A stretch of DNA of 3,941 nt. It comes from a virus (Duplodnaviria > Heunggongvirae > Uroviricota > Caudoviricetes). The stretch lies in IMG/VR virus record IMGVR_UViG_2534682295_000019; one strand, 5' to 3'. The position numbers were made by a program. This document shows, piece by piece, positions 1 to 3,000 of the stretch; position 1 is the stretch's first letter, and each line of letters begins with the position of its first letter.

Positions 1-3000
1 TCAGTTCCCCAGGCGCTCCATCAAAAACACAACCAGGCAGTAAACACCCACAACAGCAATAACAGCCAGAGCGCCTTCCATTACCAGTGAAATATCATCC
101 GACATATTCCCTCCCTTGGTGTGAATCCCGGCGAACGTTTTTACCCCCACCGACAAATAACATATACTAGAAAAGCAATAGCTATAGCAACGCCTGCAAA
201 TGCATCTGGCCGGCTCATTGGTTCTCCCCCTGTGTCGCTTCTACTGCGATCTGACTGGCGTATTCGTTAATGGTAACGATAAGTTCTTGCTCGGCCTCAT
301 CCAGACAACTACCGATACCTCGCCTGTCCACTTCAGAAGCATCGAAATCTGCACGAAGCCTGGCGACCTTCAGGATTGCGGACAACACCTCATCAGGGAT
401 TGCCGGAGAGTTGGTTGACGTTTCCGAGATTATCCGAAAATTATTGGTTGACGAACCCTTATTTTCCCGAAAGTTTCCAGCCTGAAGCATGGCGGCGCGG
501 TGACACCAGATAATCCAGCCAAGCGCCATATCCCATACCATGTAATCTCTATCGCCATTTTTTGCTCTGCGGCGATCTACAGATTCTCCGAAACGCTTCT
601 CCATAAATAATTCATAGGCTGCTCGTTCATCCGATACTGCTGCCAGTGATGCCAGCGCAATCCGTGCCAGCTCTTCCGCTTCTTCTGCTGGAAGCACAAC
701 GTTGCTACCCGGTCCGTATGTTTCGCGCCAATGCTGGATTGTCAGCAGTCGATCTTTGGTAATAGTGGTCATAGCTATTTCACCTTAATCTCAACATTTC
801 GCAGCTTTAGCTCTACTGGCATGTCTGACTTTCCTGTTAATGCTAATGCGAGATTTTCTGGAGTAATGAGAGCAGTTATTGTTTTCCCCATCGCCAGACG
901 AATAATCATTCGTATTTCGCGATCGTCACATGCTCCTGGTCGAACAATTGATATTTGTCCGTTCATCTCACTCTCCTTTGATGCGAATGCCAGCGACGCG
1001 TAATGCGTGTTCTAGGTCAATCAGGTAAAGCCAACTGCCATTTTCTTTAGGTATCATGACATGTCGCTCATCTGCATTTATCGGGTGTCCATATCGAAGG
1101 TCGTAGCGAGTCGGTAATTGAACTTCCCGCGCTTCCAGTTCAGCAATACGCTTGCTCCCATCAGAGATAACGCCTTCGTAATACTCACGCTGCTCGTTGA
1201 GTTGTGATTTTGCTTCTTCCAGTCCATCCAGCAAATCAGCGATAATATCCGCTTCCCGATGACGGATGTGACGCTTAAACGCAGCAAGAGCCGCATCACA
1301 ATCCCGTTCAGCATTTGGGCTGTCCGGGGTAGCCTGATACCACGCCAGCGTCGATTGATAGTTTTGTGCTGCCTCACGCAGTGCCTGATAGTCAATCTTG
1401 CCCACTGGCTGCCTCCTTTGCCGGGATTTCTAACTTTTGAGTGGTTGTATCAAATTCAAACAACTTAACCACGTCATCAAACAGGACATAATCACCATCA
1501 GGATCTTCAGTCATATCAGCGCCACAATCCTGACCGCACGAGTCGCAACCTCCCATATCAAGCTCGTATCGCTTCAGGTTCGCGATATTTGATAAATTCA
1601 GCGCCAGTATAGCCAGATCATTAACCTCGTCTGCGATATACCCTGCACCATGTCCATACATTTCAATGCGGGATATGATTTCTTCTACACGTTGTTTTGT
1701 GATCGTCATTTTTCTCTTCACTCCGATATACAAGGATTACTACACCCCCTCTGCTGATTGCGCGAGCTGGATCCCCTGGTTCCATGCCGTCAATACCGAA
1801 GGCTTCGAAAAATGCATCTATTGCCTTTTGGCGTTGCTCCTGCTTACGGCGTTTATTCCATTTTTTCATGAACAACAGTGACAGCCATCGTCCGCTGCAG
1901 AACATGATGTAGAAATAACCAAGGAGCGCTAGGCCGGTGTTCAGGGCTGTATCGATCGTTATCGTGGTGTTGATGTTCACTTCACACCTCTCTGTTTGTT
2001 GATAAGTTCAATATCCTGCTGGCAACTGGCGCAAGCTCTGCATCCACGAACAGCCAGGCGTCGCCGCTCATCTATCGGATCGCCACACTCGCAACAATGA
2101 GTAGCAGATGGGGCATTACTATCGGATTTGTATTTTTGCAGGGAGAGATTGCGCTGCAATTCTTCGATTTCAGCGGCGTTGTCGATGATATCTGCCATTT
2201 TCCTTTCCTTCAGGCATGAAAAAAGGAGCCGAAGCTCCTTTGGTTTTAGAATTCGAATTGCCTTGCCCGCAGGCTTTTCAGCATTGGTCTGGCCCGCTGA
2301 ACTACGAAACTCGACTGGTCAAGCCGTGCCGCCTCTCTCAGTAGCACATCTCTGTTCTTCGTCACCATGTAGATGGTCTCAAACGCAATGTCATACAGCT
2401 TGTTCGTGTATGAGGAGTTCAGCTCTTTCATGATCGGATACAGGTGTTTGCTGAGGTCCTGGGCTTTTTCCATCCAGAGTTGCATGTAGCAGAGGAGGAT
2501 GATTTCCTCGTCTGTGAATTGTTGCTGTGGTTCTGCTTGTGCCGACTGCATGTTGCGAAGTTTCTTTTCGCACTCGATGAAGTATCTGCGTATCTGTCGG
2601 CCTTTTTCGTTACGCTCTACCATCGCCGTTTCTTTGGCTGTATCGAGGGTAAGGTGGTAGTCTTTTTTCCCTCGCCCATAACCTATTTCCCGTTTCTGGG
2701 AAATAGCTATATAGTCCTGATTTTCAACGAATCCGTACTCTTCAATACGTTCTGTAATCCACGATGCAAAGCGTTTACCTACTCCAAGAAAAGTATGTAA
2801 ATCACGGGCATTAACGAGAAGAGTGGTTTCGTTGGCGATAGTGCCGTTGAATACGGGGATGAGTTGACTGGTCATGATGACCTCCTTATTTGTTTAGTTT
2901 ATAACCGCCAGTTAGTAGCTGGCGGTCGGGTGTCAACTGAGCCAAATAAGAAGCTCTGGGCATATTCCCCTTGCGGGTGTTGTATTACGCCTCTCCACCC

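Follow-up and report, generated by a model that had tools for sequence, protein, structure and literature searches.

Seven small genes behind the antirepressor-like gene ant of a lambdoid prophage are a chimera of two prophages, joined within a DUF4752 gene

The stretch of DNA analysed here (the window; 3,941 nucleotides of the Caudoviricetes record IMGVR_UViG_2534682295_000019 in IMG/VR) carries eight minus-strand genes that read away from an attR junction in wrbA. These are the antirepressor-like gene ant and, downstream of it, seven small genes, which a preliminary description made from the sequence alone had taken for one tightly coupled module. The order of the seven genes is a chimera, produced by a recent homologous crossover between two prophages within the gene of a DUF4752 protein, and this recombination junction is the main new fact on the sequence. 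The best overall explanation, to which we give a probability of roughly 0.75, is that these are accessory genes of lambdoid early regions, that the ant unit of an Sp5-type prophage was joined to a nin cassette by the crossover, and that the resulting cassette tunes the choice between lysis and lysogeny.

Megablast splits the window at position 1706, with Sp5 matching the right part and a nin cassette the left part, and in a three-way alignment the DUF4752 gene (~280 base pairs, bp) is the only sequence common to both parents. Positions 1-1794 align with zero mismatches to two copies in nin context (L012 and L005), the first mismatch falling at 1795, and positions 1757-3941 align with zero mismatches to the right end of the Shiga toxin 2 (Stx2) prophage Sp5, the last mismatch falling at 1756. 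The mismatch maps thus place the crossover, flanked left and right by 100% identity to one parent or the other, within the 38 bp from 1757 to 1794, inside the DUF4752 gene, which in the window is a hybrid allele. Only orf73, which encodes a zinc-finger protein, and the 5' part of the DUF4752 gene are native to the ant locus. The donor nin cassette has the order DUF4752-105aa-Ea22-63aa-185aa-34aa-hok-92aa-DUF968 (aa, amino acids), and the source-type contig runs leftward through hok, the 92-aa gene and the first 48 nucleotides (nt) of DUF968, as in nin regions, where it ends. Thirteen contigs, including those of three NCBI drafts and five Logan runs, encode the exact hybrid DUF4752 protein, which indicates that the hybrid is a real lineage.

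FORC_044 carries both parental loci, in opposite orientations and with ~280 kb between them, and recombination between loci of this type would invert the interval and create the junction seen in the window. The event was most likely such an inversion of ~280 kb, between two inverted prophages of related O157:H7 genomes, by which an Sp5-type Stx2 prophage at wrbA (ant-orf73-DUF4752) would have been joined to the nin cassette of a second lambdoid prophage. A double-crossover swap of the cassette from DUF4752 to hok was rejected as unsupported, the contig staying nin-like past hok into DUF968.

We surveyed 5426 complete E. coli genomes, of which 2344 match parts of window positions 1-1750 and 154 carry the ant-orf73-DUF4752 unit. 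The same types of gene occur in three lambdoid settings: the exo-xis region by int/xis, the nin region between P and hok/DUF968/RusA/Q, and the att-proximal right end of the prophage, as in Sp5, strain 86-24 and FORC_043. The nin setting is exemplified by the O157:H7 prophage by potC, where the run DUF4752-105aa-Ea22-63aa-185/195aa-34aa-hok-92aa-DUF968-RusA-Q follows P-DUF1627-DUF4406; a majority of the contigs coding for exactly the 185-aa protein of the window have this run as well. From DUF4752 to DUF968 this gene order is that of the window side, and positions 1-1794 are 100% identical to the nin copies of related drafts and ~98-99% identical to FORC_044. The potC-adjacent run, however, stands after O/P-DUF1627-DUF4406 and is read from pR towards Q, whereas the window copy stands after ant-orf73 at attR.

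Sp5 (VT2-Sakai) carries one orf73-ea22 set in its exo-xis region and a second, paralogous set at its far right end, ordered ant, zinc finger, DUF4752, Ea22-like, DUF551, hypothetical, hok and ygiW; in the circular genome, all genes of this second set share the strand that runs on from int through attP. Its ant, zinc-finger and DUF4752 genes lie between the last structural gene and att, reading away from att. The Sp5 genes ORF86-90 are the counterpart of the cassette: the DNA is identical from 1757 to the window end (ant, zinc finger, the 5' two-thirds of DUF4752, attR in wrbA), and the layout of zinc finger, DUF4752, Ea22-like, DUF551 family, hypothetical and hok is parallel. The two differ in what comes next, as Sp5 goes on with a 72-aa Ea22-like protein, a 219-aa DUF551 protein, a 131-aa protein, hok, ygiW and a large late-region gene (ECs1242, annotated as an LPD5/LPD38-domain protein), and the window instead with nin-type genes and DUF968. 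The right ends of other prophages vary as well: in strain 86-24 an Ea22-like gene directly follows the zinc-finger gene, and the FORC_043 prophage at ynfG has the order Ant-BRO-TraR-DUF4752-104aa-Ea22-Ea22-hyp-DUF551 beside a large structural gene. At wrbA, OkiPb01680 (NZ_AP042506.1, L002, 4994-12274) retains a 6-kb prophage remnant with the order wrbA-int-xis-...-DUF551-63aa-Ea22(frameshifted)-DUF4752-TraR-Ant-ymdF. This order would fit a deletion between two paralogous cassettes of a single prophage, that of the exo-xis region and that of the right end.

The cassette genes are thus mosaic accessory genes found widely in lambdoid early regions, rather than cargo peculiar to one slot. The preliminary description had placed the module in an accessory slot like the b region of lambda, between the structural end of the prophage and att. 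This holds for the Sp5 ant-zinc finger-DUF4752 genes, but positions 1-1794 are nin DNA of the P-to-Q interval, brought there by the crossover in DUF4752, and the seven genes did not evolve as a unit in this slot. The lambda b-region genes ea59, ea31 and ea47 do resemble the cassette in lying beyond att, downstream of int and on the same strand, which in a prophage is inward from attR, but the sequences are unrelated, the products of the lambda genes being an ATPase/HNH pair and one large protein.

The cassette can also be compared with the lambda exo-xis region (orf60a, orf63, orf61, orf73, ea22, ea8.5), whose published roles are control of host transcription and a bias of the lysis-versus-lysogeny decision (PMC9239242, PMC10834534). 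Both have an orf73 gene (71% identical) and an ea22 gene, both consist of small, tightly packed genes on the early left strand, and the GTGA stop/start overlap of lambda orf73/ea22 recurs in the window. In contrast to the lambda region, the cassette does not lie between exo and xis in the pL operon; it lies at attR by ant, with nin DNA as its left part. Between orf73 and ea22 it has two additional genes, DUF4752 and the 105-aa gene; the window has no homologues of orf60a, orf61, orf63 or ea8.5, and the C-terminal domain of Ea22 is a different one.

All seven open reading frames (ORFs) expected downstream of ant were recovered by ORF calling (Table 1). Every one of the genes has a Shine-Dalgarno-like (SD-like) sequence ahead of its start, and RefSeq annotates identical frames in near-identical DNA of other genomes. 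The zinc-finger gene begins 47 nt after ant and overlaps DUF4752 by 4 nt (GTGA, 1977-1980); DUF4752 overlaps the 105-aa gene by 47 nt, and this gene overlaps the Ea22-like gene by 14 nt (1392-1405). Spacings of 1 nt (TGA-g-ATG, 964-970), 2 nt (TAG-ct-ATG, 770-777) and 109 nt separate the Ea22-like, 63-aa, 185-aa and 34-aa genes, in this order. The tight packing described earlier is therefore correct for the GTGA, the TAG-ct-ATG and the 14-nt overlap; the TGA-g-ATG had been placed at 966-970, the 47-nt overlap had been passed over, and the 34-aa gene, given the 109-nt gap ahead of it, is not tightly coupled. Tight packing of genes is usual in phage operons. The 47-nt overlap was considered as an artefact of the junction and this was rejected, the same overlap being annotated in the parental nin context and in FORC_043.

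The recognisable proteins point to the control of host transcription and of phage development. The 73-aa zinc-finger protein is 71% identical to lambda Orf73 over all 73 residues and matches the Pfam family zf-dskA_traR with 31.8 bits (cut-off 24.9); it covers the whole NCBIfam model TIGR02419 (phage/conjugal plasmid TraR subfamily), narrowly missing the cut-off (52.6 versus 59.7 bits), and a sequence search of solved structures returned TraR/YbiI matches only. It has a DxxDxA motif (MADIIDNAA: D3, D6, A8), identical in lambda Orf73, which in the TraR/DksA family is the N-terminal motif that reaches the active-site region of RNA polymerase (PMC9239242). A C4 zinc finger (C35xxC38-17-C56xxC59) is present together with two extra cysteines (C36, C53), as in lambda Orf73, and the segment PIDERRRL aligns with PIPEARRK of TraR, its arginine pair being equivalent to R48/R49, which contact the rim helices and β' Si3 (PMC9239242). 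Lambda Orf73 binds RNA polymerase like TraR and inhibits rrn and ribosomal-protein promoters, slowing host growth and raising the burst size ~4-fold; RNA polymerase binding and inhibition of rRNA promoters without ppGpp (guanosine tetraphosphate) were reported for lambda Orf73 and five other members of the family (PMC9239242). From the 71% identity, we infer that the 73-aa protein also binds RNA polymerase and inhibits rRNA promoters. It is the one member of the cassette that fits the host-takeover role suggested beforehand. Sp5-type Stx phages have two orf73/TraR paralogues, the first in the exo-xis region and the second at the right end near att, and an Orf73-type protein takes up two positions in many phage records.

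The 145-aa protein is an Ea22 homologue, matching the Pfam family Ead_Ea22 with 51.4 bits (cut-off 27). It is 41% identical to lambda Ea22 over 118 residues, comprising the N-terminal and coiled-coil parts and including KLNEQREYYEGVISDGSKRIA, and stretches of its gene match lambda ea22 directly at the DNA level. The C-terminal domain differs from that of lambda Ea22, with only the last eight residues (AGIRIKGE) aligning, and the sequence search of solved structures gave no meaningful match for the protein. Ea22 is described as a prolysogenic, tetrameric coiled-coil protein whose C-terminal domains are mosaic (PMC10834534), and the C-terminal domain of lambda Ea22 has been solved by nuclear magnetic resonance. 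The protein described previously as a small membrane protein belongs to DUF4752 (Pfam PF15944, 133.7 bits, cut-off 27, all 84 profile positions covered) and has a single N-terminal hydrophobic helix followed by a basic stretch; a literature search on "DUF4752" found no paper.

The 185-aa protein falls in PHROGs 14306, 660, 60 and 3323, and has neither a Pfam match nor a C-terminal DUF551 domain (PF04448). Its 7369 homologues are mostly annotated as DUF551 proteins, and the alignment reveals that residues 1-127 are common to these proteins and end before the DUF551 domain. It can be divided into an N-terminal segment, an invariant core (38-127) and an extra helical module (128-178). Nothing meaningful was found for it in the solved-structure sequence search, and a literature search on "DUF551" yielded only a tangential link to a YfdS cluster. 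The acidic 105-aa protein is PHROG 3126, an uncharacterised, narrow family of E. coli and Salmonella phages, and it too has no solved-structure match. Two of its three cysteines are conserved, and its Cys/Asp-rich stretch was rejected as a metal site, as Cys58 is replaced by Phe in relatives. Structure prediction with AlphaFold 2 (AF2), which the preliminary description had proposed, was run for these two proteins and gave models too poor for a fold search: the mean predicted confidence (pLDDT) was 56.5 for the 185-aa protein (all-helical, 22-sequence alignment) and 43.8 for the 105-aa protein (16 sequences, none less than 72% identical to the query). The 63-aa protein is PHROG 1222, also uncharacterised, and the same gene is found in nin-region contexts. 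The small hydrophobic 34-aa protein, labelled hypothetical protein by RefSeq, has no Pfam, PHROG or NCBIfam family, and in related loci a hok/sok type I toxin-antitoxin locus always lies just downstream of its gene. The NCBIfam scan gave nothing beyond the TraR family for the cassette proteins. The statement that no family could be recognised apart from the zinc finger has thus to be revised, since Ea22, DUF4752 and the core of the DUF551 family can be recognised, and a PHROG family exists for every gene but the 34-aa one. The genes proved to be widespread in lambdoid early regions and to have partly known roles, an outcome that the earlier description had named as speaking against a special cargo module and that holds for most of the set.

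The genes most likely form one polycistronic, translationally coupled string. A single coupled message would begin at or upstream of ant and pass a hairpin between ant and the zinc-finger gene, which folds with -11.5 to -13.7 kcal/mol, has a z-score of only -1, is not called by the terminator scan, and is possibly a weak terminator. In the recombinant, the cassette would be fed from the ant side only, from a candidate promoter (3123-3094) through the ant leader and the hairpin, and entry of the message would be gated by the leader RNA described below. The promoter scan returned sites no more often than in shuffled sequence, and the promoter-like site is a candidate only. Directly upstream of it is an inverted repeat (3166-3212; 22-nt arms, 86% complementary, 3-nt spacer) that could be an operator. 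LexA control of ant was rejected, as the search for LexA boxes gave nothing above chance. The ant gene itself is identical to ECs1251 of Sp5; the Phi24B antirepressor (Fogg et al.) is apparently encoded by another gene, its C-terminal part being 82% identical to P22 Ant, and the results obtained with it were not transferred.

As for function, the Orf73-like protein would bind the secondary channel of host RNA polymerase and lower the transcription of rRNA and ribosomal-protein genes, the Ea22-like coiled-coil protein would restrain lytic development, and together the cassette may tune the lysis-lysogeny balance and the phage yield while being dispensable for growth. En-bloc deletion of Sp5 ORF86-90 (ECs1246-1250) gave several-fold more plaques and not more lysogens, and the block lies outside the nine essential Sp5 genes; its authors suggest a regulatory role (PMC5155283). 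The cassette genes belong to the "dark" early regions that have long been known in lambdoid and Stx phages, and in this respect the finding is ordinary and already known in kind.

Several observations weigh against this explanation. All contigs that include the junction stop at DUF968, in repeated DNA, and the arrangement is absent from all 5426 complete E. coli genomes, both of which weaken the case for the inversion; in FORC_043, moreover, the right end of a prophage has a similar gene order naturally. No function is assigned to five of the seven proteins, and published accounts conflict on whether Orf73 raises or lowers the phage yield. The deleted Sp5 block has only orf73 and two-thirds of DUF4752 in common with the cassette. 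The operon structure is deduced, with a promoter-like site no better than chance and a post-ant hairpin that is not statistically distinguished.

Although it lies outside the question of the cassette, the RNA ahead of ant is the more interesting lead. It matches the sRNA-Xcc1 model of Rfam (RF02221) over model positions 1-87 with 69.1 bits (gathering score 53; E = 1e-11) and lies 40 nt ahead of the ant start codon, and the same element is found 40-41 nt ahead of each Ant/BRO gene in four other prophage loci. Its loop CUUCUUAUUUG (2943-2953) is complementary to the ribosome-binding region of ant, CAAAUAAGGAG, giving an 11-bp pairing, and loop and target covary across prophages: in OkiPb01680, CUUCUUGUAAG pairs with CUUACAAGGAG. 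In a wider set of 101 unique leaders from viral contigs, the loop-target duplex has a median of -15.8 kcal/mol for cognate pairs versus -9.6 kcal/mol for non-cognate pairs, and in 50 of 75 leaders the cognate target is among the best-ranking 10%. Of 84 leaders, 45 carry farther upstream an exact copy of the target's variable 7-nt part, where fewer than one would be expected by chance. Among the 67 distinct proteins encoded downstream, at least 61 resemble antirepressors (KilA-N, Bro-N, AntA, Rha, P22_AR_N or ORF6N). Between the leader RNA and the ant ribosome-binding site there is a further 11-bp hairpin on the minus strand, ACCGCCAGCUA / UAACUGGCGGU (2904-2926). In the literature on sRNA-Xcc1 in phages we found only one remark, a link to a phage ORF6N gene.

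Table 1 Features of the window and of the loci compared with it
Feature	Position	Strand	Basis or remark
34-aa gene	1..105	-	ORF and strong SD sequence of its own
185-aa gene	215..772	-	ORF and SD-like sequence
63-aa gene	775..966	-	ORF and SD-like sequence
145-aa gene (Ea22 homologue)	968..1405	-	GTG start
105-aa acidic protein gene	1392..1709	-	ORF
105-aa DUF4752 gene	1663..1980	-	GTG start
Crossover interval of the homologous recombination	1757..1794	n/a	mismatch maps against both parents
73-aa zinc-finger gene (lambda Orf73 homologue)	1977..2198	-	ORF
Hairpin AAAGGAGC-UUCG-GCUCCUUU, then U residues	2222..2241	-	between ant and the zinc-finger gene
ant, antirepressor-like	2246..2875	-	AntA N-terminal domain and P22_AR_C (Pfam, PHROG)
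ant ribosome-binding region CAAAUAAGGAG, complementary to the leader-RNA loop	2882..2892	-	inverted repeat I6; covariation, alignment A5
sRNA-Xcc1-family structured RNA, ant leader	2916..3004	-	Rfam RF02221; loop of second hairpin 2943-2953
Upstream copy of the RNA target (core 3075-3081), at the 5' end predicted for the ant transcript	3074..3087	-	direct repeat D7
Promoter-like site TTGACA-18-CATACT, upstream of the ant leader	3094..3123	-	consensus scan, 10/12 matches
wrbA 5' fragment MAKVLVLYYSMYGHIETM, marking the attR junction	3409..3462	-	translation; end of the Sp5 feature; wrbA annotation under the match
sok (Rfam RF01794)	L003 7750-7924		within the region L003 7600-8105
VT2-Sakai orf73/TraR paralogues	L023 4872-5093; L024 5509-5730		comparison of phage records

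The preliminary description placed the prophage in wrbA, and this is borne out: the wrbA 5' fragment runs on the minus strand from an ATG at 3462 down to ~3409, the Sp5 prophage boundary maps to ~3412, and ymdF lies beyond. Just inside the prophage end, TTGGGGCA is present four times at 3238-3295, within two 25-nt direct repeats 31 nt apart, which may be integrase arm-type binding sites of an Sp5-type attP.

The leader RNA suggests another reading, in which the att-proximal ant operon of Sp5-type Stx prophages would be a second immunity and takeover unit like immI of P1: a c4-like sRNA-Xcc1 RNA would gate ant and, by coupling or read-through, the small genes behind it, and the DUF4752, 105-aa, 63-aa, 185-aa and 34-aa proteins would act on the host together with the Orf73-like protein. 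The immI region of P1 has c4 RNA ahead of icd-ant and target sites designated a1/b1 and a2/b2. The likeness to P1/P7 immI consists of a structured RNA of ~80-90 nt just upstream of an antirepressor gene on the same transcript, with a closing stem and two hairpins, a loop complementary to the ribosome-binding site that follows, and a second copy of the target ahead of the RNA. The differences are that the window RNA is sRNA-Xcc1, outside the C4 clan, that no icd-like ORF lies between this RNA and ant, and that one loop-target pair stands in place of the a/b pair of P1. The C4 model (Rfam RF01695) shares the architecture of a closing stem and two hairpins, but it gave no hit in the window at E <= 1, although P1 c4 itself scores 68.8 bits with it. 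A GCCA directly follows the closing stem of the leader RNA and resembles the tRNA-like 3' end of c4 processed by RNase P. For the operon as a whole we regard this reading as doubtful. If it were true, the RNA gate of the recombinant would sit before a foreign nin region, possibly before the Q gene of that prophage.

It is improbable that the small proteins are defence, anti-defence or superinfection-exclusion cargo, which would inhibit host immunity or exclude other phages. Five of them have no known function, two (the DUF4752 protein and the 34-aa peptide) are predicted from their sequences to be membrane proteins, and the gene content after orf73 varies among related prophages in a cargo-like way. 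Yet the recognisable members point elsewhere, as described above, and deletion of the Sp5 counterpart on a K-12 host changes the plaque number with infectivity kept. Profile searches of the kind proposed in the preliminary description, made with Pfam, PHROG and PADLOC, found families and no defence match: none of the eight proteins significantly matched any of the 5027 PADLOC defence models (best E = 0.028, 34-aa peptide against Cmr5), and the PHROG matches carry no anti-defence annotation. The defence functions proposed there thus gain no support.

That short-read assemblers joined two loci through the ~280-bp DUF4752 repeat is very improbable. The junction is indeed found only in draft or short-read assemblies (0 of 5426 complete genomes), in contigs that stop at the next repeat. 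Against this, the 13 contigs with the hybrid come from at least eight samples and two assembly pipelines, the parental alleles differ at 22 positions across the repeat, which makes the hybrid distinctive, so that it must have been read as such, and a sister assembly (AVSD) has the parental nin context.

Hardly credible, and for the seven-gene set already largely refuted, is an evolved, co-translated functional unit of the ant locus, perhaps one complex: five of the seven junctions overlap or have 1-2 nt between stop and start, and the run DUF4752-105aa-Ea22-63aa-(DUF551 family) recurs in many genomes, but the link to ant/orf73 is the recombination junction, with 100% identity to a different parent on each side, in most genomes the left-hand five genes come after DUF4406/DUF1627/P rather than after ant, 86-24 and lambda have ea22 directly after orf73 through the same GTGA overlap, and the proteins are mosaics with swapped domains.

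The crossover between an Sp5-type ant unit and a nin cassette identifies paralogous accessory cassettes as recombination substrates between O157:H7 prophages. Such recombination can rearrange the Stx2 prophage at wrbA or fix it in place, and it can change which genes a promoter serves. The leader RNA, in turn, is widespread in phages and seems to connect the sRNA-Xcc1 family with the control of antirepressor translation, a link that appears to be undescribed.

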